Shown here: positions 19,713 to 64,000 of the stretch, piece after piece
Position numbering within the stretch: the stretch's first letter is position 1
How the letters are laid out: each line of letters starts with the position of its first letter
Assembly: GCA_034658935.1 (NCBI GenBank)
Contig: JAYEGE010000008.1
Location: forward strand, 3,400-67,399
From: Patescibacteria group bacterium
GTDB lineage: Bacteria > Patescibacteriota > Minisyncoccia > Phycocordibacterales > JACOZG01
Length of the DNA stretch: 64,000 nt
Direction: 5' to 3'
The notes under the pieces: model-generated
Databases searched by the model: none
What the model saw: only the letters and a program-made list of their open reading frames with translations
What the model was told of the DNA's origin: nothing
Program-made: the position numbers and the translations under genes

Positions 19713-19715
19713 GGC

Positions 19716-29266: not shown

Positions 29267-30667
29267 ATGAAGAAAAGAATCCTATTAAGTCTAGGGGTCG
29301 TGGCCGTAATGGCTGCAGCGGTGGCTGGTGGCACCGGTGCTTTCTACGCTGACCATGAGGTCTCCGCGGGGAACACCTTTACTGCCGGGGCCATTGACCT
29401 CAAGATAGACAACGAGAGCTACTACAACGGGGCTGTCTCTGAAGAAACGACCTGGTTAGAACCGGCCGATCTTGATGAGGGGAAATTATTTTTCAACTTC
29501 AACGATCTTAAGCCGGATGACGAGGGCGAGGATACGATCTCTATTCATGTCAACAATAACGATGCTTGGCTATGTCTAGATATGACCTCGACCTCTAATG
29601 ATGACATCTCATCCAATGAGCCGGAGCTGGATACTTCTGATCCAGAAGACGATCCTAATGATACTTGGGACGGCGAATTGGCGGGTCTTATCGAGATGGT
29701 CTGGTGGGTAGATGATGGTGATAATGTGCTAGAGACTGGGGAAGATCTATTGTCTGACGATGTGCAGACCATCACTGAGCTCTTTGGTGATGACAAGACT
29801 TTCTCAGTGGGTTTGGCTGATGCCTTCAATAATGTTTGGACTGGCGAGGCTGGTCCAGCAAATGGCGGCGAAACTTATTATCTTGGTAAGGCTTGGTGCT
29901 ATGGTGATATGACCTTGGCCCCTGTCTCCCAAGACGGTCTAGACAGTTCTGGTCCACTTGATGGGCGCGGTTCTGGCTTTAATTGTGACGGTAGTCTGCT
30001 AGGCAACGAGTCTCAGACTGACGGCACAACTTTGGATGTAGCCTTTAGGGCTACTCAGGCTAGACATAATCCCACCTTCACTTGTAACGGTAATCAGCCG
30101 CGTACGGCGACGGTTACTGTGATTAAGGAGATTGTCAACGATAACGGAGGCGATAACGTAATTGATGACTTCCAATTGTATGTTGATAACGGTACCGTCG
30201 CCACTCCTGTAACCTCAGGCGTTTCTACTCTAGTGGTGGATGGCGATTATATCGTGAGCGAAACTGGAGTTTCTGGCTACGTGGCTTCCTTCAGTGGTGA
30301 TTGTGATGCTAATGGCCGATTGATGTTAATGCCTGGTGACAATAAGACTTGTACCATCACCAACAACGATCTCCCGGCCAATATTACGTTGATTAAAGAA
30401 GTGATAAATGATGATGGGGGCCAAGATGACCCAACGCAATTTAGGCTTCTAGTTGACGGTAATTTGGTTCCAAACAACACCTCGGTTGCGGTCGACTCTA
30501 ATGTCGCTCATACAATCGACGAGGATAATCGTCCTGGTTATCACTTTGTCAGTATCACTGGTAGCCCTGAGTGCCCAGATGTTCTTGGTGGCACAGCTAC
30601 TCTTGATGAGGGCAAAGTGATTACTTGTACGATCACTAACGACGATGACTACCCTGGTACTAACTAG
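29267..30667 (+). CDS. TasA/camelysin-like secreted protein paralog with two C-terminal Ig-like repeats (...CTITNDD)
   Basis: N-terminus AAVAGGTGAFYADHEVSAGNTFTAGAIDL. The C-terminus carries two repeats of about 95 aa, TVIKEIVNDNGG...SGYVASFSGDCDANG...CTITNND and TLIKEVINDDGG...CTITNDD. Confidence 0.6.
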   Translation: MKKRILLSLGVVAVMAAAVAGGTGAFYADHEVSAGNTFTAGAIDLKIDNESYYNGAVSEETTWLEPADLDEGKLFFNFNDLKPDDEGEDTISIHVNNNDAWLCLDMTSTSNDDISSNEPELDTSDPEDDPNDTWDGELAGLIEMVWWVDDGDNVLETGEDLLSDDVQTITELFGDDKTFSVGLADAFNNVWTGEAGPANGGETYYLGKAWCYGDMTLAPVSQDGLDSSGPLDGRGSGFNCDGSLLGNESQTDGTTLDVAFRATQARHNPTFTCNGNQPRTATVTVIKEIVNDNGGDNVIDDFQLYVDNGTVATPVTSGVSTLVVDGDYIVSETGVSGYVASFSGDCDANGRLMLMPGDNKTCTITNNDLPANITLIKEVINDDGGQDDPTQFRLLVDGNLVPNNTSVAVDSNVAHTIDEDNRPGYHFVSITGSPECPDVLGGTATLDEGKVITCTITNDDDYPGTN

Positions 30668-30753
30668 TACCTAGGTTCTGTTGAAGTCTTACTCTCTTGC
30701 TCCAGCCTGGGAAACGGGTTGGGCCAGAGGGCTAAGGCCTGAACGCCTTAAGT

Positions 30754-31281
30754 ATGAAAACTTTATTAAACGTTGGTTATTACGTGTTTATCGCCTTGGT
30801 GGTTGTCATCGGCCTCCTGCTGGTGTCTTCCTATTTCCAGTTTACTGACTCTTACCAGCTTAAAGTGGTCAAGTCTGGCTCAATGGAGCCGGCCATTAAG
30901 ACGGGTAGTTTGGTTTTGATCAGCCCAGCCAGGACTTATGGTGAGGGTGACGTTATCACTTTTGGTCGCGATGTTGGGTCTGCGGTCCCGACAACCCATA
31001 GGATTATTGGGGTGCGGGCAGAGGGCGGGACGATGCTCTATAAGACTAAGGGTGATGCCAATGAGGAGGCCGATCTCAACGAAGTTGCTCGGCGCGAGAT
31101 AATTGGTCGAGTGAATTTGAGTATTCCCATATTAGGTTATTTGTTAGATTTTGCTCGTCAGCCGATAGGCTTTGTTTTACTCATTGTCTTGCCGGCGATC
31201 ATGGTTGCGGTGGATGAGGTTTACAAAATCGTGAAGGAGATTAAAAAGATGCGTCAAAAGCGTCAAGAACATGCTGTTTAA
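30754..31281 (+). CDS. signal peptidase I, SipW-like (archaeal/eukaryotic S26B type)
   Basis: N-terminal TM helix followed by VVKSGSMEPAIKTGSLVLI, which is the SGSMEP catalytic-Ser motif of SipW-type peptidases. Length 175 aa. Confidence 0.7.
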   Translation: MKTLLNVGYYVFIALVVVIGLLLVSSYFQFTDSYQLKVVKSGSMEPAIKTGSLVLISPARTYGEGDVITFGRDVGSAVPTTHRIIGVRAEGGTMLYKTKGDANEEADLNEVARREIIGRVNLSIPILGYLLDFARQPIGFVLLIVLPAIMVAVDEVYKIVKEIKKMRQKRQEHAV

Positions 31282-33736
31282 AACAAAATCAATCGCTAGT
31301 TGTTTGATCGGAGTTGCTGTTGTTGCAGTCCTAGTCCTTCTGTCGTCCGCAGCCCTGGCCTATTACCAGGACCCAGAGGTGGGGGGCTTGGTGGGGCAGG
31401 CCACGGACCTAGACTTCATTTTAGACGTGGGGGAGTGGGCGCCGGGGGCCGATGTTGATGATTTGGAGCCGGGTGAGTCTGTCGCTCGTCTGATTAGATT
31501 GGTCGATGACGCTCCTCGCCCCTCGACTCCCTTTTGGTACCAGGTAACTGCTCTCGAGACTGGGGGTAATCCTGATTTTTGTGCGGCACTCCAATTAGAC
31601 GCCCAGGTAGACGGTGTCCCGGTCTACGATGGCCCGTTACTTAGTTTGGCTGTGGGTTTTCCACTAGCTTTCGACCCCCTGGCCTCAATTTGGGATATGC
31701 GGGTGTATTTGCCACTCGGTTCACCATCGTTAGATGATCGGCAATGCGATTTCGATTTTGTCTTTCAGGGTTGGCAGGAGCGCTTCGATGTTTTTCCAGA
31801 GGGCTATCATGATGAAGAAGTGTCCTCCAATCAGCTCTCGACTCCAGAGACACGTCAGTGTTTGATGATCAATTTTGAAACGGATGCTAATGATGCTCCG
31901 ATTGAAACTGGGCAGAGAATTAACGATGAATATTCTCCATGGGGCGTACTGATAGATGCACATAATAATAACCATCGTCACCCGGATGAGGCCATTATAT
32001 TTGACTCCGATTTACCCACTGGTCGTGATATAGATTTAGGTACTCCTAATGAAGACTTTGGTGGACCTGGCATCGGTGCTGGTGGACGTCTTGGTACACT
32101 TGGGGCCAATTTCCTTGCTCAGCATAATTTCTTGATCATTGCCGAGAACGATGAAGACGCTAACGGCGATGGCTTAGTTGATGACCCCGACGATGAAAAT
32201 GATGGCGGTTATTTGGGCTTCACCTTCGATCAACCTTCTTGGGTCAAAGAGTTGCGCCTTTTCGATATTGAGGAGCAGGGGGCCGAGGTCCAACTTTACG
32301 ATGAGGCCGGGATCAATTTCTCCACCATCGCCGTACCTCCTCTTGGTGATAACTCGGCGCAATTGGTGTATATCGACCAGGAGAATGTTAAGGAATTGCG
32401 CGTGTCTCTACCGGGCTCGGGTGCGGTGGATGATATCTGTGTCGATGTGCCACCCCCTCCAATACTCGGCTGTAGTCCTGGTTTCTGGAAAAATCATACT
32501 GAGATCTGGTTTGACCTAAATGACCCTTATGATGTTAGCCTCTTAGCCTACTTGGAAGCACAGGGAGATGGGGCCGAAGATCGACGTTATGGAGCTACCG
32601 CCCACCTGAATGCTGAATTCCCAGAGGTTGCTGTTGGGTGTGCTGAGGAAATGCCTCCAGGTACGCCACCACCACCTCCACCATCTTTCCCCGTCGTGTT
32701 AAACGAATTTCTACCGCGGCCACGAGGCGAGGACTATGGTTTTGATTTCGGTAATGATTCCAGTGTCATGCCGCAGGGCGAATGGGTGGAGCTCTACAAT
32801 AATGGTGACCAGGTATATGACCTAAGCGGTTGGTATGTTTGGGATGCCAGCAGCGATGAAAACAATAAGATTATGATTACTGTCGCCAATACCGTACCAG
32901 CCGCTACTGAGATTGCCCCCCACGATTGGTTGGTTGTGTATCTCAATCAGGCGGTCATGAATAATAACGGCGATGAAATTCGACTATATGATGGTGCTGA
33001 TGAATTAGTCGATGCTCATAGTTATAGCGGCGGTAATTATTGTGAACAAGAGCCGACACCAGGAGAGGGTAATGATACTGGCCCGAGCGAGGAGGAGTGC
33101 AATGCCGTTCCGCCGAATAAATCTTACGCCCGCATTCCTGATGGCGTTGGGGCTTGGGTGGACCCCGTTCCAACTCCGGGCGCTCCCAATATTCCAGATG
33201 ACCCAGCACTTGGTATTACCATAGAAATTGCCTTGGATGCTGTTGTGGACTTGGCTGAGAACTTCATTGTTCCATTGCGTGATATTAAGATCGTCAAGAC
33301 TACTAGCAGTGGAGGAGGTGGGTCGTCTTCGGCAGTAGTGACAGCAGCTGAAGTCGCCGATGGCCCAGCGACAGGGGGGCCGGTGGCCGTTAGTGAAGAT
33401 GACACCATGTCGGTTAGTGATACCCCAAACGCCGCAGATATTATTGAGGCAATAGATGCGTTAGGAGGCACTCCGGCAGAAGCCGTTGAGGCCGCCGAAG
33501 GTCCAGTGACGGGGGAGGCAACCGCCGTCGACGAGGGCGATACTGTATCTGCTGGCGTCACCGAGTCGGCAATGCCGGCAACCCCGGCGGACAGTAGTGC
33601 GTCTGCTGAGCCAGCGGTCCCTAGCGCCCCTGAACCAGCTCCGACCCCGGCTTCAGCGCTACCACCACCAGCCCCTGTTCCAGCCGCCGGTGGTGGTGCG
33701 GGTGCGTCTGGCGATAATCAATCAAGTGATGAATAA
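31271..33736 (+). CDS. large secreted protein with a SipW-cognate-like N-terminus, a lamin-tail domain (LTD) and a Pro/Ala/Ser-rich tail
   Basis: SSAALAYYQDPEVGG...ATDLDF is SipW-cognate-like. NEFLPRPRGEDYGFDFGNDSSVMPQGEWVELYNNGDQVYDLSGWYVWD...GDEIRLYDGADELVDAHSY matches the LTD pattern. Length 821 aa. Confidence 0.55.
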   Translation: MLFKTKSIASCLIGVAVVAVLVLLSSAALAYYQDPEVGGLVGQATDLDFILDVGEWAPGADVDDLEPGESVARLIRLVDDAPRPSTPFWYQVTALETGGNPDFCAALQLDAQVDGVPVYDGPLLSLAVGFPLAFDPLASIWDMRVYLPLGSPSLDDRQCDFDFVFQGWQERFDVFPEGYHDEEVSSNQLSTPETRQCLMINFETDANDAPIETGQRINDEYSPWGVLIDAHNNNHRHPDEAIIFDSDLPTGRDIDLGTPNEDFGGPGIGAGGRLGTLGANFLAQHNFLIIAENDEDANGDGLVDDPDDENDGGYLGFTFDQPSWVKELRLFDIEEQGAEVQLYDEAGINFSTIAVPPLGDNSAQLVYIDQENVKELRVSLPGSGAVDDICVDVPPPPILGCSPGFWKNHTEIWFDLNDPYDVSLLAYLEAQGDGAEDRRYGATAHLNAEFPEVAVGCAEEMPPGTPPPPPPSFPVVLNEFLPRPRGEDYGFDFGNDSSVMPQGEWVELYNNGDQVYDLSGWYVWDASSDENNKIMITVANTVPAATEIAPHDWLVVYLNQAVMNNNGDEIRLYDGADELVDAHSYSGGNYCEQEPTPGEGNDTGPSEEECNAVPPNKSYARIPDGVGAWVDPVPTPGAPNIPDDPALGITIEIALDAVVDLAENFIVPLRDIKIVKTTSSGGGGSSSAVVTAAEVADGPATGGPVAVSEDDTMSVSDTPNAADIIEAIDALGGTPAEAVEAAEGPVTGEATAVDEGDTVSAGVTESAMPATPADSSASAEPAVPSAPEPAPTPASALPPPAPVPAAGGGAGASGDNQSSDE

Positions 33737-35135
33737 ATTAACCCACATCTTATCCTTAGCCTGGCTCCTTGTGGCCATGAGTTGCGCCGGTACAGCTTTG
33801 GCTGATACCCGGCTGGAAGTTACCTTTGATCCTAATCCGCTCTTTGACGTCGGCAATTTTATTCCTGGCGATGAGGAGGAGGGCATAGTTACGGTGGGTA
33901 ATTTAACTGAAGTAAATCAGCAGGTGATTGCAGAGGCTATTAACGTCGACGACCCAGACACCTTGGGTCAGATGATTTCTCTGGAGATTCGTGACGGTGC
34001 TGACAATCAAATTTTTAGCGACGAGTTGGCCGAGTTCTTAAGAATAGGTGAAGTGGACTTAGCCGAGCTCCTTGCTAGCGATAGCCAGACTTTTGTTTTC
34101 ACTGCGAGATTTGAAGATACCGAAGATAATACTTGGCAAGAATCGAGCCTAGCTTTTGATCTATGTATCGGGTTCCGTGGGGATGACCAATCTATGAATT
34201 GTGGAGGGACGGTGATCGGCGAGGAACAGGATCTTGATTCCGGCGACCTCGACGGTGATACTCCTGGCGGCGGCACTGTGAGCGGCGGCCGCCGACTCAC
34301 TATCCATGACGAGCGAGTGGAGAGCATTAACGCCCCAGCTGGCACCGCTGTAATCACTTGGCGAACTAATCTCCTGGCCACCAGTCAGGTCATCTATGGT
34401 CTGTCTGAAGTCGGCCCCTATACTCTTGATCTTGAAGCGATTAATTTTGGCTATTCATCGATGACACCCGAGGACCCTATTAAGGTCCTCGATCATACAA
34501 TGACTATTGGAGGTTTGGTGCCGGGAGCCGTCTATGATTACCGAGTGGTTTCGCGCGCCTCTCCGCCAACTATTAGCCCGGCGCACCAATTTACGGTGCC
34601 GGCCTCTGACGGCACGCCTCCTTCGGAATTATTGGCACTAGTCCCCGGAAATGTTTTGCCGGCTGGTGTTAACTCACCGACGGGCGTAGGGGATCAGGAC
34701 GAAGGCGGCTCATCGCCATCCTCCTCTGGGTTGGTAGACGATAGCGTTGGTGCGGCCGGTCTTGATGGCGGGGGAGATAAGACTGGAGTAGATGGTAATG
34801 CCACCGACACTGGCAATCTTGCTGCTGCCCTGTTTGCCTTCCCAGAGGACTTGGCGGCGTTTCTAGACTGTGCCTGGGCTTGGCTGATCGCTCTCTTAAT
34901 AATCTATATTGTTTGGCGCTTGTGGCGGGCCTATCACCCTCATTATCGCTCTAGCGCTGTTTCGAGCAAAGACTTAGCCATAGACAGGTCTCATTTCTTT
35001 ATGGTTGCCATCGTCGCGGCTGGTATAATCTTGGCCCTGATGGATAGGTATTGCGCTCTCTGGCCACTAATAATCGTCTTCATTATTTTCCTAATCATTC
35101 GTATTAAATTGGGCGGCAGGCAGGTGGCGGCTTAG
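33729..35135 (+). CDS. secreted protein with a C-terminal membrane anchor
   Basis: Start placed at MNKLTHILSLAWLLVAMSCAGTALA, which is a signal peptide. The ORF track begins upstream, overlapping the previous gene. C-terminal TM helices are present. Confidence 0.5.
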   Translation: MNKLTHILSLAWLLVAMSCAGTALADTRLEVTFDPNPLFDVGNFIPGDEEEGIVTVGNLTEVNQQVIAEAINVDDPDTLGQMISLEIRDGADNQIFSDELAEFLRIGEVDLAELLASDSQTFVFTARFEDTEDNTWQESSLAFDLCIGFRGDDQSMNCGGTVIGEEQDLDSGDLDGDTPGGGTVSGGRRLTIHDERVESINAPAGTAVITWRTNLLATSQVIYGLSEVGPYTLDLEAINFGYSSMTPEDPIKVLDHTMTIGGLVPGAVYDYRVVSRASPPTISPAHQFTVPASDGTPPSELLALVPGNVLPAGVNSPTGVGDQDEGGSSPSSSGLVDDSVGAAGLDGGGDKTGVDGNATDTGNLAAALFAFPEDLAAFLDCAWAWLIALLIIYIVWRLWRAYHPHYRSSAVSSKDLAIDRSHFFMVAIVAAGIILALMDRYCALWPLIIVFIIFLIIRIKLGGRQVAA

Positions 35136-43071: not shown

Positions 43072-43825
43072 TGTGCAACACTTAGTGTTGCACAAATGAG
43101 CTGAGCTTACTAAACTGTAGTGGATATGCGTCGGATCAAAATCAGTCCAGGAGAATGTTACCATCTTTATAATAGAGGCAATAATAAGCAGAACATATTC
43201 CGTGATAATCGTGATCGAGCCCGCCTCCTCTTCCTTTTGATAGGTTTGCAATCCGAACTATCTTTCAAAAATATCAGTCGATTAGTTTCAGCTTTAACTA
43301 AAAGACCAAAACTTATCTTGAATGCTCGAGTTGTCTCTGAGGTTAGTGCAGCTCGTTACGTTGATCTAATTAGTTTTGTCTTAATGCCCAACCATTTTCA
43401 TTTAATTGTTTTTGAACGCAAAGAAGGTGGTATTGCTAAATACATGCAACGAGCGCTCAACGCCTATACAAAATATTTTAATACTCGGTATAAAAAAATG
43501 GGCATGTATTTGGGGGGACATACCAAGCCGTTCATATCGAAGACAATGATCAGCTTCTTTATGCTTCTGCCTATCTCCACAGAAATGCTCACCAATTACC
43601 AGTTTGGACTGGTCGCTCGGCGGAGTATCCTTGGTCAAGTTATAGTGATTACGTCGGAAATAATCGGTGGGGGGAGCTTTTAAACCGGCGAATGATTATG
43701 GAACAATTTGTCGACGGTAACGAATACCGACAGTGGGTTGAGACCAGTAGTGCCAAGGACCAAGATTGGGAATTTCAAGAGGGGAACTAAATTGTGCAAC
43801 ACTGTGCAACACTTAGTGTTGCACA
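43072..43825 (+). mobile_element. IS200/IS605-like mini-element 2 (palindrome tgtgcaacac-tta-gtgttgcaca at both ends)
   Basis: Hairpins at 43072-43094 and 43803-43825, plus an extra half-copy at 43793-43802. Total length 754 bp. Confidence 0.65.
43120..43790 (+). pseudogene. Y1 HUH transposase paralog, frameshifted
   Basis: The N-terminal part (CYHLYNRGNNKQNIF...LMPNHFHLIV) is in one frame. The C-terminal part (...LLYASAYLHRNAHQLPVWTGRSAEYPWSSY...) is in another. The switch falls at the A7/G6 homopolymers around 43500-43520. Confidence 0.6.
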
Positions 43826-49103: not shown

Positions 49104-49691
49104 TTAATAATTACCCGGGGCCCCGGGTAAGATTGCCAAACGGGCTGGTGGGAAGAGGCGGACTAGGGCCCGGCCAGTGATCATCTCTCCAGGCAGGGCC
49201 CCCCAATTGCGGGAGTCAAAACTAACATCACGATTATCTCCCATGACAAAATACTCGTTGTCCTTGAGGGAGAGCTCGGTGTCGATCAAGGGGTTCTCTG
49301 GGCTCTGAAGGTATGGTTCATCCACATTAATTATTTGTCCGTCGCGCAGAATGTTGATCTTATTATTAGTGATTACTATCTGTTCGCCAGGCAAACCGAT
49401 GATTCGTTTGATGAAGAACTTCTTTGGGTTTTTGGGGTAGCGGAAAATAATAACTTCTCCTCGTGTTGGTTTGCGAAAGAGGTAAGAGGCCTCATCAACG
49501 ATCAAATACTCCTTGTCCTCAAAAGTTGGGTACATTGAGGCCCCGCTGACGATGAAGGGTTGAGCAATATAAGTTCGGATGGGGATGACAATAATCAGAG
49601 TGAGGATGACCATCTTGATTACTTCCCAGGCGGTAGACTTAAAATTGCTAGACATGAGACCCAGTTTATTACAAATAAATGGCTGAGGCAA
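49104..49691 (-). CDS. lepB: signal peptidase I (bacterial type)
   Basis: SGASMYPTF (Ser box) and GDNRDVSFDSRNWG (box E). Confidence 0.85.
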   Translation of the reverse strand: MPQPFICNKLGLMSSNFKSTAWEVIKMVILTLIIVIPIRTYIAQPFIVSGASMYPTFEDKEYLIVDEASYLFRKPTRGEVIIFRYPKNPKKFFIKRIIGLPGEQIVITNNKINILRDGQIINVDEPYLQSPENPLIDTELSLKDNEYFVMGDNRDVSFDSRNWGALPGEMITGRALVRLFPPARLAILPGAPGNY

Positions 49692-57228: not shown

Positions 57229-58022
57229 CACTGTCAAGGTCCGACCTTGACAGTGAAGTTATCCCCCTAAAACAGGGGGTATATCTTTGGCAAGGTCCGA
57301 CCTTGGGGTAGAATTGACCAATGACTAGGAGGTTTAAGTTTGCTCCTGGAGAGTATTACCATATTTATAATCGAGGCAATGATCGCCGCAGTATTTTCCT
57401 ATCTGGCAAAGACCGTGATCGCTTTCTCGCTCTGCTTTACGTTTGCAATAGTGGCGAGGTTCTCCATCTGAGTGATTACCCCCAAACCTCCCTGCTGAAA
57501 TTGCTGAGTCTGCCTAGGTCTTCAGTATTGGCAGATATCGGTGCCTATTGTTTGATGCCAAACCATTTCCACTTATTGGTACGGGAGAACGAGGAGGGTG
57601 GCATTAGCCGCTTGATGCAGAAATTACTGACTGCTTACACCATGTATTTTAATCGTAAGCATCAACACACCGGCTCTTTGTTTGAGGGTCGCTTTCGAGC
57701 CAGACACGTTAGCGACGATCGACATTTGCAGTATCTCTTCGCCTATATTCATCTCAATCCTGTTAAGGTTAGAGACCCTGACAATTGGGAGAAAAAAACT
57801 ATTCTCGATACGGATGAAGCGGTACGTTTTTTGAATACCTACCCGTACTCTAGTTTTCTCGATTATCTCGGTCGGAATAGGGGAGAGGGGGCAATCATAA
57901 ACCCGTCGGCTTTCCCAGAGTATTTTTCGGTGCCGTCTGATTTCTCCGATTTTGTACAGGATTGGATGAGTTTTGACGAAGAGGAGGATCTCACCACTGT
58001 CAAGGTCGGACCTTGACAGTGA
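57229..58022 (+). mobile_element. IS200/IS605-like mini-element 3 (palindrome cactgtcaaggtc-c/g-gaccttgacagtg at both ends)
   Basis: Hairpins at 57229-57255 and 57996-58022 lie within 40-bp direct repeats. An extra partial hairpin is at 57291-57305. Total length 794 bp. Confidence 0.65.
57321..58016 (+). CDS. Y1 HUH transposase (IS200-like / RAYT-like)
   Basis: CLMPNHFHLLV (HUH motif) and YLFAYIHLNPVK (Tyr motif). Length 231 aa. About 60% similar to the 20862 copy. Confidence 0.7.
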   Translation: MTRRFKFAPGEYYHIYNRGNDRRSIFLSGKDRDRFLALLYVCNSGEVLHLSDYPQTSLLKLLSLPRSSVLADIGAYCLMPNHFHLLVRENEEGGISRLMQKLLTAYTMYFNRKHQHTGSLFEGRFRARHVSDDRHLQYLFAYIHLNPVKVRDPDNWEKKTILDTDEAVRFLNTYPYSSFLDYLGRNRGEGAIINPSAFPEYFSVPSDFSDFVQDWMSFDEEEDLTTVKVGP

Positions 58023-58074
58023 ATAATCCCCAGAGGGCGGCTTTGTTTTAAGATAAAAGAGGTATAATTGAATT

Positions 58075-58605
58075 ATGTTTTCCGATCCTGCCCAGAATGT
58101 GGCGGCTTTTGGTTTGACCGAAGGAATGCGTGTAGTCGAGTTCGGTGCTGGTTCTGGTGCCTATACGTTAGCTATGGCCGAGCGAGTTGGTAGTACTGGC
58201 AAGGTCTACGCTATTGATGTGCAAAGCGAGTTGCTCTCCCGTCTCGATAATTTAGTCAAGGAAAAGAGGAGGAGTAATATCGAAATTGTTCGGGCTAATA
58301 TTGAGCGCCAGGGAGGTTCGGGCTTAGCAGATAATCTTGCTGACGTTGTTTTGTTGACCAATGTCCTCTTCCAATCTGATGCCAAATACAGCATGGTCTT
58401 GGAGGCCAAGCGAGTACTTAGGCCAGGTGGTCAGGCAATTATTATTGACTGGCAAGGCTCTTTCTCTCAGCTCGGGCCAACGCCAGAGCAGGTTATTAAA
58501 CCGGAAGAGGCCAAGCAGATTTTTGACCAGGCTGGCCTAAAGTTTGATCGCGATTTTTCTGCCGGCGATCATCATTATGGCATGATCTTCAATAAACAAT
58601 CATGA
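58075..58605 (+). CDS. class I SAM-dependent methyltransferase
   Basis: VVEFGAGSGAYTLAMAE (motif I) and VLLTNVLFQ. Confidence 0.7.
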   Translation: MFSDPAQNVAAFGLTEGMRVVEFGAGSGAYTLAMAERVGSTGKVYAIDVQSELLSRLDNLVKEKRRSNIEIVRANIERQGGSGLADNLADVVLLTNVLFQSDAKYSMVLEAKRVLRPGGQAIIIDWQGSFSQLGPTPEQVIKPEEAKQIFDQAGLKFDRDFSAGDHHYGMIFNKQS

Positions 58606-59918
58606 ATACCTTCCAATTAGTCATTCTCGGCATCTTCATTTTTCTGGCCATCTTTGCGGTCCTCGTTTTCTCGGGCATTATTCCTTTGGGGGTTGGTTTT
58701 GGTGGCTCGGATCCAGTGGAACTGGTTTGGTGGGGGACGGTACCGTCTCGGGCCCAAGGCCTCGATCTCTCGATCAGAACTTTCAATGCGGAGCACAAGG
58801 ATCAAATTTCGGTTAGATATGTCCAGAAGGATAGTCGGACCTTAGAACAGGAGTTAATTGGGGCCTTGGCGTCTGGTCGGGGGCCCGATCTTATCCTGGC
58901 GCCCCATGAATTAATCATTAGACATGCTGACAAGTTACGTCTCTTCTCCTATGAGTCTATCAGCCAGCGGAAATTTATAGATACTTTTGCTCAAGAGGCT
59001 AGGTTGTGGCTCTACCCAGAGGGGATTCTGGCCCTACCGATGTATATAGATCCATTGGTGCTCTATTATAATCGAGACCTATTTACCACAGCGCGTTTGC
59101 CGTCTCCTCCGCGCACTTGGGAAGAGCTCAGGGATCAGGCCCAGGCTCTGACCCAGACTGACGAGCGTGACAATATATCTCAAAGCGCCATTGCTTTGGG
59201 TGGCTTTAATAATATTGCCTTGGCTAAAGATATTTTGGTCGCTTTGATTATGCAGGCAGGTAACCCCTTGGTCATGCAAGGGGATTCGGAATTCGAGGTG
59301 ACCCTGCGTAATACTCTGGGCTATGCAGAGGCGCCGGCCGGAGGGGCGCTCGCCTTCTTCAATAAGTTTAGCGACTCAGCCAACTCTCTGTATTCTTGGA
59401 ACAGTGCCTTGCCTGAGGCGCGGTCGATGTTTACTCGGAGTGGTCTGGCGATGTATTTGGGTTATGCCAGTGAGCTCAATCTTATTCGCCGGCAGAATCC
59501 CCAACTTAATTTTGATGTCACCACGGTGCCTCAGTCGGCGAGGGCCAATACTGCAGATATTACCTTGGGGCGGCTTTACGGCTTGGCGGCACTGAAATCC
59601 TCCCCGCATGCCACCCACGCCGCCCAGGCCATCTTGTTCTTAGAAGCTCCGGACTTTCTCCAATCATGGTCGGAGGTTGTGGAATTGCCGCCAGCGCGGC
59701 TGGATCTCTTGCGTAATAAACCACAAGACCCGGCCCAAAGTGTGTTCTACGACTCAGCCATTATCGCCCGTGGCTGGTATGATTTTGATCCCCAGGCCAG
59801 TGGCGAAATCATACGAGAGCTGGCTGAGAGCGTTAGGCAGGGGAGGGCTCAGACGGGCGAGGCGCTAAGTCTGGCCCACCAACAATTAACCAATTTGATC
59901 CCAAATTTTGGCCAATAA
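58602..59918 (+). CDS. extracellular solute-binding protein (ABC transporter, family 1-like) with an N-terminal TM anchor
   Basis: N-terminal TM helix, then the VELVWWGTV...WEEL pattern typical of sugar SBPs. Confidence 0.55.
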   Translation: MNTFQLVILGIFIFLAIFAVLVFSGIIPLGVGFGGSDPVELVWWGTVPSRAQGLDLSIRTFNAEHKDQISVRYVQKDSRTLEQELIGALASGRGPDLILAPHELIIRHADKLRLFSYESISQRKFIDTFAQEARLWLYPEGILALPMYIDPLVLYYNRDLFTTARLPSPPRTWEELRDQAQALTQTDERDNISQSAIALGGFNNIALAKDILVALIMQAGNPLVMQGDSEFEVTLRNTLGYAEAPAGGALAFFNKFSDSANSLYSWNSALPEARSMFTRSGLAMYLGYASELNLIRRQNPQLNFDVTTVPQSARANTADITLGRLYGLAALKSSPHATHAAQAILFLEAPDFLQSWSEVVELPPARLDLLRNKPQDPAQSVFYDSAIIARGWYDFDPQASGEIIRELAESVRQGRAQTGEALSLAHQQLTNLIPNFGQ

Positions 59919-59920
59919 AT

Positions 59921-60355
59921 ATGTTATTTTTTTCTCGACTCAGTAATAAGTCCTGGCTTGCGATATCCTGCTTCCTGCTTGTCCTCGTGGTTTTATTATT
60001 GACCCCGGCTCTGACCTTTGCTCAGGATGGGATTGTTCCCTGTAAGGACGGGTGCGGCTTCGCAGATCTCATACAGCTTATAAAAAATCTCTTAGGTTGG
60101 TTTGTGATGATTGCTGTGCCGGTGGCTACCATGATGATTGTCTATGCTGGCGCCCTGCTTGTCACTGCCCCGACAGATACCGGTAAGCGCGTTAAGGCTA
60201 AAAGTGTTTTCAAGGTGGCAGTCATCGGCTTGGTTGCTGTCTTGGCCGCCTGGCTGATCGTTGATACAATATTAAATGAGTTAACTGGCACGGGGATTGA
60301 TCAGAGAACAGAAAATATATCATCCTCTGCGCCACCACTCCTTAGACAGTCATGA
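59921..60355 (+). CDS. VirB2/TrbC-like small pilin-family membrane protein (paralog 1)
   Basis: Signal peptide ending ALTFA, followed by two hydrophobic helices (LGWFVMIAVPVATMMIVYAGALLV and FKVAVIGLVAVLAAWLIV). Confidence 0.55.
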   Translation: MLFFSRLSNKSWLAISCFLLVLVVLLLTPALTFAQDGIVPCKDGCGFADLIQLIKNLLGWFVMIAVPVATMMIVYAGALLVTAPTDTGKRVKAKSVFKVAVIGLVAVLAAWLIVDTILNELTGTGIDQRTENISSSAPPLLRQS

Positions 60356-60798
60356 TCAAAAGAAAAGCATTTTTACACCACCTAAGTGTGTTACTGGCCA
60401 CGTTTATGGTGTTTGGCCTGTTTTCTACTGCTGGCGTTGCCTTAGCGGGTCCCCTTGGGGGCGGCGAGACGAGTGAGTCATCCGGTGGTTTAACCAATCC
60501 ACTTGAGCCTGCCGGCATAGATAGTATTCCCCTTCTTATAGATAAAATCTTAGAGATAGTTGTTAAGGTGGGATTACCGATTGTGGCGATAGCGATAATC
60601 TACACTGGTTTCCTTTTTGTCTCGGCCCGAGGCGATCCCAGCAAATTAACTACAGCCAAGGACGCCTTTAAATACACCATCATCGGCGCTGCTATTGTCT
60701 TGGGGGCCGCCGTCATTTCTGCGGCTATCAATGCGACAGTGGACGAGATAAGGTCTGATGCTACCGTGCTTATTAATATTTTCTCAAATATTGTATGA
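60352..60798 (+). CDS. VirB2/TrbC-like small pilin-family membrane protein (paralog 2)
   Basis: Signal peptide ending GVALAG and two TM helices (FKYTIIGAAIVLGAAVISAAI). Its start overlaps the stop of the previous gene. Confidence 0.55.
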   Translation: MIKRKAFLHHLSVLLATFMVFGLFSTAGVALAGPLGGGETSESSGGLTNPLEPAGIDSIPLLIDKILEIVVKVGLPIVAIAIIYTGFLFVSARGDPSKLTTAKDAFKYTIIGAAIVLGAAVISAAINATVDEIRSDATVLINIFSNIV

Positions 60799-61145
60799 AG
60801 AGATTATATCCCAGCCTATTGATTGCTCTTATCGCTTTGCCTGCGGTGGCCTTGGCGACTGATCGCACTATTGCCCAAATAATCAAAGAGACCCTCATCC
60901 GTGATTTGGCTCCCCCCGTTGTTGTCCTTATTCTTACATTGGCGCTAGTTTATTTCTTCGCTGGAGTTGCTAAGTATATTGGCAAGGCTGGCGAGAGCAA
61001 AGATCGGGAAGAGGGTAAGAAGATGATGGTCTACGGCATTATTGGTCTGGCGGTAATGATCGCAGTCTGGGGACTTGTTGCTCTGCTGGTGAATACCTTT
61101 TTCCCTGGGGGGCCTCCTGACGCTATCCCCACCCTTACGTTGTAA
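60795..61145 (+). CDS. VirB2/TrbC-like small pilin-family membrane protein (paralog 3)
   Basis: Signal peptide ending VALA and two TM helices (MMVYGIIGLAVMIAVWGLVALLV). Confidence 0.55.
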   Translation: MKRLYPSLLIALIALPAVALATDRTIAQIIKETLIRDLAPPVVVLILTLALVYFFAGVAKYIGKAGESKDREEGKKMMVYGIIGLAVMIAVWGLVALLVNTFFPGGPPDAIPTLTL

Positions 61146-61239
61146 TTCATAGCCCAGATTAGAGGGTGTGGTACAATTTGAATAGTTAGTATAATTATAA
61201 AAGGTCGTTTTTAGGTATTATTATTGTTATTAAAAAAAT

Positions 61240-61587
61240 ATGAGTAAAGTTGGAAAATGGTTCATGGGGATAGGAGTTTTCGCCCTTCCTATGTTGGCAG
61301 CTGCCGAAAATTTGGAAGATACCGTGGGCACTGTTGATTCATTGCTGCGATCTGTCATCCCTATAATTATGGTTTTGGCCATCCTCTACTTCTTCTGGGG
61401 ATTGGTCAAGTACATCCAGGCCGCCGGGGATGCTGGTAAGGCCTCAGAAGGGAAGAGCATCATGATCTATGGTATTATTGCCCTTTTCGTGATGTCAGCC
61501 ATTTGGGGTTTGGTAGGATTACTGTCTGAGACTTTTGTCTCTGATGGTGGCGATGCTCCTGATTCGGCAGATCTACTTCCCACATAA
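61240..61587 (+). CDS. VirB2/TrbC-like small pilin-family membrane protein (paralog 4)
   Basis: Signal peptide ending LAAA and two TM helices (IMIYGIIALFVMSAIWGLVGLL). Confidence 0.55.
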   Translation: MSKVGKWFMGIGVFALPMLAAAENLEDTVGTVDSLLRSVIPIIMVLAILYFFWGLVKYIQAAGDAGKASEGKSIMIYGIIALFVMSAIWGLVGLLSETFVSDGGDAPDSADLLPT

Positions 61588-61624
61588 TCTTTCTAATGAT
61601 TAGTGGCGACAGCTAAAACTTATC

Positions 61625-61864
61625 TTGGACTCACTCTTAACCAAAATAAATACCGAACTTCTGAACCCGTTTATTGCCCTGCTTTTTGCTCTTGCTTTAG
61701 TCTTTTTCCTCTATGGTGTGTATGAGTATGTCAAAGGGGCTGATAGTGGAACAATTAGGGAAACGGGGAAGATGCATATGATTTGGGGGGTTGTTGGTAT
61801 GGCCATCATGGTTTCAGCTTTTGGGATCATGGGAGTGATCTGCAAGACGATTGGTAGTTGTTGA
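61625..61864 (+). CDS. VirB2/TrbC-like small pilin-family membrane protein (paralog 5, short)
   Basis: Two TM helices (MIWGVVGMAIMVSAFGIMGVI). Confidence 0.5.
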   Translation: MDSLLTKINTELLNPFIALLFALALVFFLYGVYEYVKGADSGTIRETGKMHMIWGVVGMAIMVSAFGIMGVICKTIGSC

Positions 61865-61875
61865 TCGACAATAAC

Positions 61876-61971
61876 ATGACTGTGAGTAAAATCGGAAAAT
61901 GGTTTCTGGGTATGGGGCTTCTCGCTCCGCCTATGTTGGCGCTCGCCGCTGACGATGATTTATATGGATAA
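61876..61971 (+). pseudogene. 5' fragment (31 codons, signal peptide only) of a pilin paralog
   Basis: MTVSKIGKWFLGMGLLAPPMLALAADDDLYG* closely parallels the N-terminus of the 61240 gene (MSKVGKWFMGIGVFALPMLAAAEN). Confidence 0.4.
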
Positions 61972-61973
61972 AA

Positions 61974-62009
61974 CGTCCCGGTCCGCCATGGCGGACCGGG
62001 GCGTTTTTG
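61974..62009 (+). terminator. rho-independent terminator (cccggtccgcc-at-ggcggaccggg followed by a T-run)
   Basis: 11-bp perfect hairpin followed by GCGTTTTTG. Confidence 0.7.
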
Positions 62010-62082
62010 TTTGAGAACAAAAAAAGCGAGGGCGGCATTTCCTTTCGGAAACGTAGCTCTCGCTTGTGTACAGGGGAGTGGC

Positions 62083-63048
62083 CTATTGGCGCAATATCTG
62101 TATCGCCCCATTCGATACTTGATTACCTGCTACTGACTCGTCGGTTCTCCAATGCCCGACGTAGTCCTGCCCCCCGGCCCTCCTTTCGAGGACCATGTTA
62201 CCCCAGCCGCCTGGTTCTCTCCAGTCACCAGACATACTGGAGGCTGGGCCGGATATCTCGACGTAGCCTCTGCCCTTGGGGGTTAGATATTGGAAGGACA
62301 GATTTCTTCGGCCCCCCTCCATATGCTCGATCTTGTGCCGAGTCATCATCTCTCCGTCTTCGTCGTAGACAACCATGACCCACTTTGGCTCGGCCAGCCG
62401 AGCCCTCTCGATCGCTTCGACTCTGGCGTCTGCTACTTTCGCCGCCTCCCATCGTGTTTGTACTGGTTGGGAGGAGAGGAGTAGGGCCAAGAGGATAGTT
62501 ATGCTATTGAGCCATATGCCCGCACGACGAAAGTGGAGGGAAAAGGCTGCCCAGCCCACCAATAAGACGAAGAAGGAAAACCAACCTTCGTCCCACCAAG
62601 TCTGCCACGTCTCCCACCTAACTTTGCGTTCTGGGTGGAAGTAGATGGTGCCCAGGGCTACTGCCCAGAAGACAGCGGCGAGCCAATAAGTCCTGACGAT
62701 GCCCTGTCGGGTTTCAGCCGCTTCCGCCGCATCTTCTGCAGCTGCTGGGGTCCCCGCGGTCCTTGCTTCGCGGGCTCTTTTTCTGGTGCCTCCGATCGAA
62801 ACTACGACGCTGATGATAAGAGCAAGGGCCAGCACGGGGCCTACAAAACTCATGATGATTCCCCACGAGATCTCTGTGCCCGTGCTTGCTACACCCACAG
62901 TCGTTGCCGCGCTCGCACTTGTTCCTGTTGTGCCGCCTGTGTTTACCTCCTCGCTACCTCCTTGCGCGGCGTTCAAGATCAAGAGAATGCCGATGACGAT
63001 TGCCACAACAATGATGGCAATCACTTTGATCCACTTATTTCTCGTCAT
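62083..63048 (-). CDS. GC-rich hypothetical membrane protein
   Basis: N-terminal TM helix, a Thr/Gly/Ser/Ala-rich linker and further TM helices. No recognised domain. Confidence 0.45.
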   Translation of the reverse strand: MTRNKWIKVIAIIVVAIVIGILLILNAAQGGSEEVNTGGTTGTSASAATTVGVASTGTEISWGIIMSFVGPVLALALIISVVVSIGGTRKRAREARTAGTPAAAEDAAEAAETRQGIVRTYWLAAVFWAVALGTIYFHPERKVRWETWQTWWDEGWFSFFVLLVGWAAFSLHFRRAGIWLNSITILLALLLSSQPVQTRWEAAKVADARVEAIERARLAEPKWVMVVYDEDGEMMTRHKIEHMEGGRRNLSFQYLTPKGRGYVEISGPASSMSGDWREPGGWGNMVLERRAGGQDYVGHWRTDESVAGNQVSNGAIQILRQ

Positions 63049-63301
63049 TTCTCAGTCTCCCTTTCAGTTTTTTGTTTTCCTTGATCTTTGCCAAGAGAAG
63101 CCCGGGAAGTTCTGTAAAAGCAACTGGTATAATCACTAGCCCTTGAGCCAGCAACACCATGCTCTGTAGGAGTCTCCATAGGCCCCGTTTTTTCTGTAGT
63201 CGACCGTTAGCTGCACGACAGAGACTGTCGATCAGAGGATAGCTGAGGTCAAGCCCCAGCGATACCATCAACACGATGAGAAACCGTATCCAGAATTCCA
63301 T
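63035..63301 (-). CDS. small hypothetical membrane protein
   Basis: Two TM helices. Overlaps the upstream gene by 14 nt. Confidence 0.35.
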   Translation of the reverse strand: MEFWIRFLIVLMVSLGLDLSYPLIDSLCRAANGRLQKKRGLWRLLQSMVLLAQGLVIIPVAFTELPGLLLAKIKENKKLKGRLRNDEK

Positions 63302-63539
63302 GAGAGTACCTCCCGTATCTTCTACTCAGTAGAGCCCTAGGGCTCGAAATTCAGGTCTTTTGTCAAGGAACCACTCCTCGATGCTACCCCCAGTGTAGCA
63401 TATATATGTCGTATTTGTCAAGTATAGGGTTGACAAGATCATCTAATTATGATAGACTAGGGGCAGTTACCAATCCAGTATCTTATGCCTATGTTGGTGT
63501 AGATATGGGGTGATCGGACCTTAACATAAGGGGTTATGC

Positions 63540-64000
63540 CATGTTTCTGAATATCCTGTTGGGTGTGTTGTTGTTCTCGGCAAGTGTAATCGTACTCATC
63601 GGGGTGCTCTGGGTTTCTGCCCTGCACAAGATCCATGCTTCATTCGTGGCGCACGGGACGATTGAATTGGTGATGGCCGGCGAGACCCTCTTCAAGGTTC
63701 TCGCCAACGTGCCGGGTTATTACTATGACCCGATTACAAAGAGAATGAGAAAACTAGCGGTAGGCGAAGAAGACCCAAATGAGGGCAAGATTGCTAGTTA
63801 CTTGCGTAGAAGGTGGGGTTTTTTCTGGGTAAGTATCCTGTATCCAATGCGCCAAGTCCATCGTTTTGTCCTGGCATCCCCAGACAAACTGGAAAGTCAG
63901 GGGCGTCAGGTGGAGACTGGAGTTGCGGCCCCCGGTGAAGTGCGGAAGCGGCTGTTGGCTCAACCCAATAGGCTTACAGAGTTCTTGCTCTGGCAGATCC
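63540..64000 (+). CDS. hypothetical membrane protein, 3' end outside window
   Basis: ATG at 63540 opens a frame (MFLNILLGVLLFSASVIVLIGVLWV...) that runs to the window end without a stop. It is absent from the ORF track for that reason. Confidence 0.35.

Follow-up and report, generated by a model that had tools for sequence, protein, structure and literature searches.

The question that we address here is what kind of structure a tandem array of five small membrane proteins builds in a Patescibacteria chromosome when no T4SS gene lies near it. The array is found at 59921–61864, on the + strand of a 64 kb stretch of DNA that is called the window in the following. We will argue, as the fairly probable reading, that the region is the pilin part of an operon, the membrane-stored pilins of which serve a T4SS from another part of the genome and have a solute-binding-protein-like protein (SBP) as surface partner. 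Tandem divergent VirB2-like pilin arrays have already been published in Patescibacteria (PMC12102498; Wang 2023, PMC10633639), and the array is thus of a known kind. As many as 441 VirB2-like arrays have been counted, with a mean paralog identity of 25% (PMC12102498), and the six-pilin array of Southlakia epibionticum, located within a T4SS cluster, is essential (Wang 2023, PMC10633639). The function of the T4SS and pilin array of Patescibacteria has been termed completely unknown (PMC11665869). The present array is in itself a further example of the published pattern; what is possibly new is that its SBP and methyltransferase partners are invariable across the Paceibacteria.

As the initial annotation of this DNA had described, there are five consecutive genes of 79–148 aa, and two pairs of them have overlapping stop and start codons. 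Gene 1 (59921–60355, 144 aa) is a pilin of type A1, with a signal peptide, an IVPCKDGCGF motif and a hairpin of two transmembrane (TM) helices. It shares a 4-nt overlap (ATGA) with gene 2 (60352–60798, 148 aa), a type A2 pilin in which the signal peptide is followed by a Gly/Ser-rich mature N-terminus and a two-TM hairpin. Gene 2 overlaps in the same way with gene 3 (60795–61145, 116 aa), a type B pilin with a signal peptide and a hairpin. An AT-rich gap of 94 nt (61146–61239) separates these from gene 4 (61240–61587, 115 aa), which is also of type B and of the same build, and gene 5 (61625–61864, 79 aa), a type C pilin that starts with TTG and is a leaderless two-TM hairpin. All five are read from the + strand and form the 3′ part of an operon, the first gene of which encodes a class I SAM-dependent methyltransferase (58075–58605, +, 176 aa; Pfam Methyltransf_31/11/25, UbiE-type matches). 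Its stop codon overlaps the start of the SBP gene by 4 nt. The SBP (58602–59918, +, 438 aa) is membrane-anchored by an N-terminal TM helix and has a MalE-like two-lobe domain, and gene 1 starts 2 nt past its stop codon.

We now turn to the family to which the five proteins belong. The curated gathering cutoff of PF18895 (T4SS_pilin), applied to the whole-protein score, is 26.6 bits, and all five proteins exceed it, with 44.6, 35.5, 39.1, 43.6 and 28.1 bits for genes 1–5, respectively. Judged by these scores, the matches are not due to chance. The initial annotation had named a lack of pilin-family matches as grounds for giving up its proposal, and the opposite is found. In the PF04956 (TrbC/VirB2) search that it had recommended, the best match, that of gene 2 (23.3 bits, E 7.4e-5), is below the cutoff of 27.9 bits. 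Precomputed ‘weak’ TrbC matches exist at array positions 1–2 of the loci L002, L004, L005, L088 and L089. The profile NF045849 (Mbov_0395 pilin-like), with a cutoff of 40 bits, also yields sub-threshold matches only, of 20–27 bits for genes 1, 3, 4 and 5 and 9.8 bits for gene 2, the E-values being ~1e-6 for genes 1, 4 and 5. Gene 4 has 241 homologues with E ≤ 1e-3, and PF18895 is present in all 120 among the matches listed. When a profile of these homologues is run against the PDB sequences, the top match is TraM of pKM101, a VirB2 homologue (E 0.0067), in an alignment that is collinear over the end of the signal peptide and TM1. The corresponding profiles built from type A pilins, and those built from the six window peptides, give only spurious GPCR and photosystem matches, and gene 2 has a faint DctQ-like match (E 0.017). 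Fold searches do not discriminate for a plain helical hairpin, as SYCE3 scores as high as the pilin, and Foldseek with the pilin hairpin returns no matches. The original proposal of VirB2/TrbC-like pilin paralogs in a CPR-type genome is thus supported by the five PF18895 matches, the TraM match and the arrays in the literature.

According to hydropathy and, for gene 4, an AlphaFold model (pLDDT 83; helices 2–21, 25–61 and 65–101), genes 1–4 encode a signal peptide followed by a two-helix hairpin. The cleavage-site check that had been suggested gives, by eye, putative A-x-A-type sites in all four, namely TFA↓Q, ALA↓G, ALA↓T and AAA↓E, and the window also encodes a signal peptidase I (49104–49691). 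The predicted features of genes 1–4 are those of a VirB2-type pilin, i.e. a cleavable signal peptide and two TM helices with a short loop, while gene 5 has the hairpin only. The claim that each gene encodes a signal peptide holds therefore for genes 1–4 but not for gene 5, which has an in-frame stop 8 codons 5′ of its start and only two hydrophobic segments by hydropathy. A conserved G-rich second helix had also been claimed, and this was overstated; the conserved pattern that we find in the pilins is M-x-x-G-x-x-A/G...G. Another option considered was that gene 5 is a 5′-truncated pseudogene. This can be ruled out, because leaderless orthologues of 78–110 aa end most arrays (in 52 of 69, the terminal gene encodes two hydrophobic segments), and the orthologue in the closest relative, locus L006, has an ATG at the homologous codon. 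Gene 5 is a conserved leaderless subunit with a PrgF-like architecture.

The order of the paralog types, A1, A2, B, B, C, is kept across 80 species-level loci. Gene 1 is best matched by the first gene of the array in 58 of 67 loci, and gene 5 by the last one in 63 of 66. For gene 2, the best match is the second gene in 42 of 67 loci and the first in another 24. A gene at the same position in another species is 47–68% identical, whereas paralogs of the same array are 19–42% identical, with a mean of 26.7% and the maximum of 42% between genes 3 and 4. Since the genes are closer to their positional counterparts elsewhere than to their own neighbours, the paralogs are, on these identities, ancient types fixed in position and not recent diversifications. 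The best-conserved sequence of the array is that of gene 4, which is 68% identical to its L006 orthologue. At positions 1–2, on the other hand, the exposed N-terminal part of the type A pilins varies between ~30 and more than 800 residues across species, and extracellular N-terminal regions of 600–850 aa occur in type A pilins of other species. The divergence of the N-termini had been taken as a hint of diversification. The variation is real, mostly at the type A positions, but the paralogs are not freely diversifying. Their fixed order favours a heteromeric assembly of specialised subunits over antigenic variation.

The module, in the order methyltransferase, SBP and pilins, is located downstream of gyrA, as it is in every one of the 80 Paceibacteria loci with enough downstream sequence. 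All related loci with enough downstream sequence have the SBP gene followed by 4–7 pilin genes, and in nearly all of the 80 loci the gene directly 5′ of it is that of the methyltransferase; in L002 and L006, methyltransferase and SBP are fused into a single ORF of 615 aa. The complete chromosomes OZ244961.1 and OZ246398.1 (L018 and L085) are among the carriers of the module. The SBP has the SBP_bac_1/SBP_bac_8 domain and the two-lobe fold of a family-1 protein, with 61.3 bits for PF01547 and 57.6 bits for PF13416. Its AF2 model (pLDDT 95, helix 3–24) is closest in the PDB to oligosaccharide SBPs such as Atu4361, MalE and the cyclodextrin-binding protein (Foldseek, E ~1e-22). No ABC permease or ATPase gene adjoins the SBP gene in the window or in any related locus, where its neighbours are the genes for the methyltransferase and the pilins. 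One clade has the SBP and the first pilin, A1, as a single fused protein (P0126 and P0128). These two fusion proteins are 51% identical to each other and have the same context, and one fusion contig was recovered in 3 samples. The operon is chromosomal and vertically inherited, of Paceibacteria type (CPR/Patescibacteria). An origin of the array from a mobile element is ruled out by the housekeeping block in which it lies, the conserved gene order and the GC content, which is not unusual. An Rfam scan of 58000–64000 gives no matches, and DnaA boxes are not clustered in the window (9 one-mismatch sites, compared to 13 expected).

It is important to point out that the window contains no genes for VirB4, VirB6, VirB3/PrgI or VirD4 among the 40 long ORFs scanned with Pfam, in agreement with the initial annotation, which had reported no VirB4, VirB6 or VirB11 gene. 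In the window 49 ORFs reach 150 aa, and the scan covered 40 of them; the others are mostly shadow ORFs inside scanned genes. In the 80 related loci, none of VirB4, VirB6, VirB3/PrgI and VirD4 recurs within 8 kb of the SBP gene. There are also no T4SS genes on a 25.8 kb Logan contig that ends ~1.3 kb past the window and is identical to it over the 6 kb compared (58001–64000). The link to a T4SS rests therefore on the family membership and on other classes. Of 3,035 Patescibacteria assemblies, 2,417 have VirB4, which in Paceibacteria is near dnaA. In Nomurabacteria genomes, virB4 is accompanied by a row of genes that match VirB2/PrgF profiles and lie at a distance from it. Name matches of the related loci to a published VirB4 table cover 5 genomes, 3 positive and 2 negative, which is too few to decide. 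The two scored VirB4-negative, Kaiserbacteria CG10_..._49_17 and Athens0416_74 (L020 and L077), are draft MAGs, and both have the module.

The gap before gene 4 holds two −10-like boxes, TGGTACAAT (ending at 61177) and TATAAT (61190–61195), and also AAGGTCGTTT at 61201–61210. Genes 4–5 probably have an internal promoter and their 5′ UTR here, as the sequence and its counterparts elsewhere suggest: the largest gap within the array precedes the penultimate gene in 53 of 69 arrays, and GGTC[GA] is enriched in gaps of this largest type (17 of 61, compared to 5.5 expected). A consensus promoter scan lists no + strand site at 61146–61239. The possibility that AAGGTCGTTT is a genome-wide promoter motif was also considered, and it is ruled out by the lack of enrichment in the window.

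At the other end of the array there is a 31-codon ORF (61876–61971, +) that consists only of a type-B-like signal peptide and the residues ADDDLYG. It had been described as a duplicate of a paralog's signal peptide followed by a strong terminator, and both descriptions are correct. The fragment repeats, in diverged form, the region of gene 4 that encodes the signal peptide, with ~75% nucleotide identity over ~65 nt and 14 of 21 residues in common, and its best matches in other loci are the signal peptides of type B pilins; the ORF at 61858–61971 has no PF18895 match. The terminator is a bidirectional intrinsic hairpin (61966–62012) common to the array and the convergent gene at 62083–63048 (−). 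It has a folding energy of −33.3 kcal mol−1 (z −5.6), a value reached by 0 of 200 shuffles, and is followed by a U-run on the + strand, the scan listing the − strand too. In L006 the 31-codon ORF is absent and the terminator is directly 3′ of the type C gene, while L005 and L016 have a full sixth pilin at this position. The fragment is thus most likely a lineage-specific relic, left either by a partial duplication or by the loss of a sixth pilin. With its signal peptide and short tail it has the look of a pheromone precursor, but a functional gene for a secreted heptapeptide was rejected since it is absent from the closest relative and no conservation is evident.

How does the array compare with known systems? 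The published Patescibacteria arrays, such as those counted in PMC12102498 and SEML1_0014-0019 of Ca. Southlakia epibionticum ML1, resemble it in being PF18895 members, in consisting of 5–6 small signal-peptide-plus-hairpin proteins in tandem with ~25% paralog identity, and in being chromosomal, without relaxase, in a monoderm host. However, they are defined by proximity to virB4, and the ML1 array is beside VirB6/VirB4, whereas the array in the window is near no T4SS gene, is joined, downstream of gyrA, to the genes of a methyltransferase and an SBP, and has a leaderless last subunit. The published array text does not contain ‘solute’, ‘substrate-binding’ or ‘gyrA’, and a full-text literature search returned no paper on the SBP/gyrA link. 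With the diderm VirB2/TrbC/TraM pilins (PF04956; T-pilus, RP4, pKM101 N-pilus 8CW4) the window pilins share the signal peptide, the two hydrophobic helices with a short polar Lys-containing loop between them, and a mature length of ~70–100 residues. The sequence-profile similarity to them is weak, with scores below the family cutoff, and those systems have one pilin instead of several fixed paralog types; the window, moreover, gives no evidence of a cyclisation or acetylation enzyme or of VirB5, and the host is without outer membrane.

PrgF of pCF10 (75 aa) is, like gene 5, a leaderless two-TM hairpin with a charged loop. The two align collinearly from end to end, but not significantly (5.5–6.2 bits, hhalign probability 2%), and the same is true for the type B and type C profiles against PrgF in hhalign and hmmsearch. 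PrgF is, furthermore, a single gene inside a T4SS operon. The CONJScan PrgF profile matches 627 Patescibacteria proteins, some of them in runs beside VirB2 matches. To the Mbov_0395-type pilin-like proteins of monoderm MPF-FATA systems, genes 1, 4 and 5 have the sub-threshold similarity given above. The archaeal Ced/Ted DNA-import pilins (8DFT, Pyrobaculum) belong to an MPF-FATA-related branch, the nearest to Patescibacteria VirB4, but they are only 8% identical to the window pilins, with a fold match no better than to unrelated hairpins.

In the mechanism that we propose, the products of genes 1–4 would be inserted by Sec and then cleaved by signal peptidase I, while that of gene 5 would enter the membrane without a leader. 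The cytoplasmic membrane would thus store all five pilins as N-out/C-out hairpins. From this pool, an ATPase of VirB4 type and a channel of VirB6/PrgI type, encoded at another site in the genome (in Paceibacteria, usually near dnaA), would build a heteromeric pilus or conduit of a monoderm-type Patescibacteria T4SS. The type B pilin of gene 4 is probably the bulk subunit and a candidate for the major one, because it is preceded by a promoter-like gap of its own and is the most strongly conserved, and types A1 and A2 are probably adaptor subunits, the N-termini of which would bear exposed modules. The roles of the SBP and the methyltransferase are ones that we infer. Placed on the outer face beside A1, or fused to it, the SBP may act as a recognition unit for a glycan or other ligand, in contact with the host surface or in the capture of a host-derived molecule.

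Different readings of the locus have to be weighed against this. It is, in our view, extremely improbable that the ORFs have nothing to do with pilins and encode generic hydrophobic membrane peptides of small size, or are decaying remnants. It is true that short hydrophobic proteins draw many weak Pfam matches to unrelated membrane families, that the gene prediction for the Logan contig missed gene 5 and that fold searches are non-specific. However, with all five proteins above the curated PF18895 cutoff, the PF18895-bearing homologues of gene 4, and order, length classes and start position conserved over 80 loci, gene 5 included, this reading is, at the level of family membership, already refuted by the sequences; ‘remnant’ fits the ORF at 61876–61971 only. 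Quite unlikely, too, although with somewhat more in its favour, are interchangeable and rapidly diversifying major pilins that serve antigenic or host-range variation, as has been suggested for VirB2 paralogs in Bartonella and Anaplasma. Such an interpretation has been raised for Patescibacteria (PMC12102498), and it agrees with the low mean identity of the paralogs, their variable mature N-termini and the duplicated signal-peptide fragment, which shows that duplication occurs. The virB2 paralogs of Bartonella, Anaplasma and Rickettsia, which are thought to serve antigenic variation, are likewise several genes in a row with divergent exposed parts. The window paralogs, in contrast, are ancient, position-fixed and structurally differentiated. 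The closer identity to same-position genes than to neighbours, the constancy of the first and last positions and the leaderless type all speak against variation, and the positional orthology together with the leaderless type is better explained by fixed, non-redundant subunits than by a variation cassette.

The more serious competitor is a module that works independently of any T4SS, in which the hairpin proteins form a membrane ring, pore or short fibre with an orphan SBP, as an organelle for adhesion or for uptake of something like a host oligosaccharide. The strict adjacency and translational coupling of SBP and pilins in 80 loci, the SBP::pilin fusion, the lack of ABC permease and ATPase genes around the SBP gene in all loci, the distance from virB4, the two module-bearing draft genomes scored VirB4-negative and the faint DctQ-like match of gene 2 are all in line with it. 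We nevertheless consider it rather unlikely. In Saccharimonadia and Microgenomatia, PF18895 members are found inside the T4SS cluster, by VirB6/VirB4, and are essential. The similarity to VirB2 (TraM, TrbC) is weak but specific, most Patescibacteria have VirB4, and the VirB4-negative calls stem from incomplete MAGs. Nor do the genes of the module include a large membrane subunit of transporter type.

In the sole Patescibacteria species tested, epibiotic growth requires the T4SS and its pilin array. An SBP in a conserved pilin operon hints at how the pilins meet their target. If the link between SBP and pilins is functional, it opens testable questions on the ligand of the SBP, on whether the SBP is located on the filament and on the dependence of the module on VirB4. 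A further, tentative and on balance doubtful suggestion is that the methyltransferase–SBP–pilin operon encodes a distinct Paceibacteria surface apparatus, in which the oligosaccharide-type SBP would be carried by the VirB2-like hairpin subunits, through a covalent link in one clade. It would be either a T4SS-independent device for adhesion or uptake or a ligand-recognising head for the T4SS pilus. If true, either version would give a first concrete clue to the binding partner of these essential pilins.

The array consists of five consecutive genes on the forward strand: gene 1 (59921-60355, 144 aa), gene 2 (60352-60798, 148 aa), gene 3 (60795-61145, 116 aa), gene 4 (61240-61587, 115 aa) and gene 5 (61625-61864, 79 aa, TTG start). 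The two pairs with overlapping stop and start codons reported in the initial annotation are found as 4-nt overlaps (ATGA) at the gene 1/2 and gene 2/3 junctions, while gene 4 is preceded by an AT-rich gap of 94 nt and gene 5 by a gap of 37 nt. Gene 1 starts 2 nt past the stop of a gene for a solute-binding-protein (SBP)-like protein (58602-59918, +, 438 aa, SBP_bac_1/SBP_bac_8 domains), which in turn overlaps by 4 nt the gene of a class I SAM methyltransferase directly upstream (58075-58605, +, 176 aa). According to hydropathy, genes 1-4 have three hydrophobic segments, that is, a signal peptide and two helices, helix 1 of genes 1 and 2 appearing as two adjoining segments. Gene 5 has only two such segments, and an in-frame stop lies 8 codons 5' of its start. 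The description of every gene as encoding a signal peptide is thus right for genes 1-4 but wrong for gene 5. On all other points the initial observation stands. The AlphaFold model of gene 4 (pLDDT 83) is helical, with a signal-peptide helix followed by a long helical hairpin; Foldseek returned no match to it.

Gene 4 has 241 homologues at E <= 1e-3, and PF18895 (T4SS_pilin) is present in 120/120 of those listed; several, from Paceibacterota, Yonathbacteria and similar groups, carry the NCBI name 'pilin'. A profile of these homologues gives only two matches among all PDB sequences, the top one being the pKM101 N-pilus protein TraM (8CW4, E 0.0067), which is homologous to VirB2 and aligns collinearly from the signal-peptide end through helix 1. 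The family put forward initially, PF04956 (TrbC/VirB2), is matched by gene 2 only, at 23.3 against a threshold of 27.9, and the NCBIfam model for the mycoplasma ICE 'pilin-like conjugal transfer protein' matches 4/5 genes below its cutoff (E 3e-6 to 3e-4). The pilin HMM built in this analysis finds only the five array genes in the window.

Arrays of this kind have been described. In 3,035 genomes of Patescibacteria, profile searches (PF18895, PF04956, CONJScan) yielded 441 'VirB2 arrays' of 2-11 pilin genes each, with a mean paralog identity of 25% (PMC12102498, Microbial Genomics 2025). The window array, with a mean of 26.7% and a maximum of 42%, matches this pattern and belongs as such to the published kind, as the initial annotation had supposed for CPR genomes. 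The PF18895 membership and this divergence support a VirB2/TrbC-like pilin array: the finding is real and its core interpretation is correct. That the genes merely encode generic peptides is highly improbable.

We compared the array with related loci in other genomes (L-numbers below; L006 is from the closest relative). The top match of gene 1 is at array position 1 in 58/67 loci, that of gene 2 at position 2 in 42/67 and at position 1 in 24, that of gene 4 penultimate in 37/64, and that of gene 5 last in 63/66. The window pilins are 47-68% identical to the same-position genes of L006 and 19-42% to their own neighbours. On this basis three pilin types are distinguished. In type A (genes 1 and 2, or A1 and A2) the mature N-termini are longer and vary, and there are weak TrbC matches; type B (genes 3 and 4) is the best conserved in sequence; and type C (gene 5) is leaderless. 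In A1, a motif (I/L)VPC...C.F precedes helix 1. The final array gene has two hydrophobic segments in 52/69 arrays (78-110 aa), and the L006 type C gene has ATG at the codon where the window has TTG, which indicates that gene 5 is a true subunit and is conserved. It has the same architecture as PrgF of pCF10, a leaderless hairpin of 75 aa; direct comparisons with PrgF align collinearly but fall short of significance. In some species, type A proteins carry N-terminal regions of 600-850 aa with fn3- or PhoD-N-like repeats before the same C-terminal hairpin.

Several further features of the arrays were observed. Pilin-domain proteins of 589-929 aa occur at L068 1472-6407, L021 9335-11548, L052 10158-11966 and L040 8479-10248, with large extracellular regions N-terminal to the PF18895 hairpin, some having fn3- or PhoD-N-like repeats; in L040 the extension is C-terminal. 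Cysteine pairs are conserved on the predicted outer face (window 59990-60070 and 61840-61864; L006 4170-4192): the pair of A1 pilins belongs to their (I/L)VPC...C.F motif, and the C-terminus of type C reads C-x4-5-C, as ICKTIGSC (window) and ICNTINC (L006). At the gene 4 site, type B is preceded in 53/69 arrays by a conserved AT-rich gap containing -10-like boxes. Just past the preceding stop codon, about 20/69 arrays have the DnaA-box-like octamer TATCCACA in this gap (for example L019 5218, L023 4746, L031 10033, L037 10066), and in array regions it is about three times as dense as over the loci as a whole. These gaps are likewise enriched in GGTC[GA] (17/61 versus 5.5 expected). In the window, AAGGTCGTTT occurs at 61201-61210 and TATCCACA is absent.

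The coupling of the array to the SBP and methyltransferase genes is widespread. Three loci with gene-4 homologues have, in the same order, an S1 protein, a metallo-beta-lactamase-fold protein, GyrA, the methyltransferase, the SBP and 4-5 pilins. A scan with an SBP alignment, using one genome per species, gave 80 loci from Kaiser-, Vogel-, Nomura-, Giovannonibacteria and other Paceibacteria; identity is 31-55% for the SBP and 51-75% for GyrA. Every locus with enough downstream sequence has 4-7 pilin-HMM ORFs after the SBP gene, usually at a spacing of -77 to +93 nt (one exception, 2,198 nt), and within stretches of +/-8 kb this single downstream run accounts for all pilin matches. In nearly all 80 loci the SBP gene is preceded by that of the methyltransferase. 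Some 9 kb downstream of the array in L004, on a 617 kb Paceibacterota chromosome, a further PF18895 protein of at least 277 aa follows ClpB (19558-20351).

At its N-terminus the SBP-like protein carries a TM helix, and the closest solved folds to its model (pLDDT 95) are oligosaccharide-binding ABC receptors (E ~1e-22), namely Atu4361, MalE and cyclodextrin- and sophoro-oligosaccharide-binding proteins. No permease or ATPase gene adjoins its gene in the window. In two proteins the SBP is in frame with the first (A1) pilin, in the context methyltransferase, [SBP::A1], A2 and so on: P0126 (L088 6001-7653, 550 aa, on a Logan contig present in three samples) and P0128 (L089 518-2167, 549 aa, a JGI metagenome). 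The two are 51% identical over their full length, junction included, so the fusion has been kept over substantial divergence, and an assembly error is unlikely. The arrangement makes topological sense: an N-terminal anchor is followed by the SBP and then the VPC...C.F loop, both outside, after which helix 1 crosses inward and helix 2, past a cytoplasmic loop, crosses back out. The SBP and the pilin N-terminus thereby share the outer face. This suggests that the SBP and A1 are physically associated also where separate genes encode them. In L002/L006 (537-2384) the methyltransferase is joined to the SBP N-terminus in one 615-aa ORF, which would tether the enzyme to the cytoplasmic membrane face. 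Candidate substrates such as the lysines of the pilin loop or a lipid are pure guesswork.

At the 3' end, a 31-codon ORF (61876-61971, +) codes for a signal peptide like those of type B, followed by seven residues. Compared with the signal-peptide part of gene 4, it is about 75% identical in DNA over some 65 nt and has 14/21 residues in common, in agreement with its original description as a duplicate from one paralog, and its top matches in other loci are type-B pilin signal peptides. L006 has no such sequence, the terminator coming straight after the type C gene, and L005/L016 have one more complete pilin 3' of that gene. Most simply, it is read as a partial duplication that has decayed, or as what is left of a sixth pilin. 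The strong terminator noted 3' of it is a hairpin at 61966-62012 (dG -33.3 kcal/mol, z -5.6, U-run), which also terminates the convergent gene 62083-63048. This gene and 63035-63301 (both -) encode membrane proteins of 321 and 88 aa without a Pfam family or a homologue in the 80 related loci; they share the bidirectional terminator and mark the variable 3' border of the conserved block. None of the genes 3' of the array has a counterpart in any of the 80 loci, so the conserved block ends with the array.

The window is otherwise an ordinary CPR chromosome, with GatB, MurB, MurJ, LepA, HisRS, TsaD, FtsZ, FtsA, FolD, a class I (I/L/M/V-type) aminoacyl-tRNA synthetase, signal peptidase I, S1 protein, GyrA and six tRNAs. 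It also has three diverged ORFs (187-231 aa) for IS200-like Y1 transposases (PF01797), at 57321-58016, 20862-21545 and 43120-43683, DNA similarity being seen only between the first and third (68% over 235 nt). The 57321 copy lies between gyrA and the methyltransferase and has no homologue at that position in the 80 loci; its sole homologue there is about 7 kb upstream of the SBP gene in L025. A second cluster, putatively for surface fibres, spans 28382-35135. It comprises two camelysin/TasA-like (Peptidase_M73) proteins, one with an added SpaA-like domain, alongside a small S26 signal peptidase resembling SipW (30754-31281), a lamin-tail-domain protein of 821 aa and a protein of 512 aa whose Pur_ac_phosph_N domain is purple-acid-phosphatase N-terminal-like.

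A 2025 review calls the Patescibacteria T4SSs the only monoderm ones with potential pili, and in Southlakia epibionticum a six-pilin array inside the T4SS cluster is essential (Wang et al. 2023, PMC10633639). We consider it probable that the VirB2-like subunits made by the operon form a pool in the membrane for the monoderm-type T4SS, which most Patescibacteria encode elsewhere. Type B would then be the bulk subunit, with type A serving as adaptors and type C as a PrgF-like component; the SBP may act as a recognition module on the outer face. VirB4 was found in 2,417 of the 3,035 assemblies, in Paceibacteria usually close to dnaA/dnaN, and the published arrays are apparently those 'near virB4' (Fig. 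S9 legend and Table S3; PMC12102498); published tables for Nomurabacteria have 'VirB2, PrgF, PrgF' profile runs about 240 genes from virB4. By name, only five genomes with a homologue of gene 4 or of the SBP could be linked to entries in the published VirB4 table. Nomurabacteria ..._42_19, which has the module (L044), is VirB4-positive, as are Athens0714_16 and Zambryskibacteria RIFOXYD1_FULL_40_13, which hold a gene-4 homologue; Kaiserbacteria CG10_..._49_17 (L020) and Athens0416_74 (L077), both drafts, have the module and are scored negative.

The weak point of the T4SS-pool reading is that no T4SS gene lies near the module. None of the VirB4, VirB6, VirB11 and VirD4 families is found in the 40 long window ORFs scanned, which bears out the reported absence of the first three, and the related loci have no recurrent VirB4-like large ORF, their sole recurrent Walker-A protein being IF-2. 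The main rival, a T4SS-independent device of SBP and hairpins for uptake or adhesion, seems unlikely to us. Antigenic variation is more doubtful still: the hint of diversifying paralogs stands for the variable exposed part of type A, but the same-position identities exceeding those between neighbours speak against free diversification. Old, ordered and differentiated paralogs argue against such a cassette and for heteromeric assembly.

The words 'solute', 'substrate-binding' and 'gyrA' are absent from the text of PMC12102498, and a further full-text literature search gave nothing on an SBP/gyrA-pilin link. In the literature searched, three things appear undescribed: that the array is invariantly coupled, downstream of gyrA, to a methyltransferase and an orphan SBP of the oligosaccharide type; that the paralog types, one of them leaderless, come in a fixed order; and that SBP::pilin fusions exist. 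Together, the module coupling, the fixed order and the fusions provide a testable handle on the function of Patescibacteria pilins.
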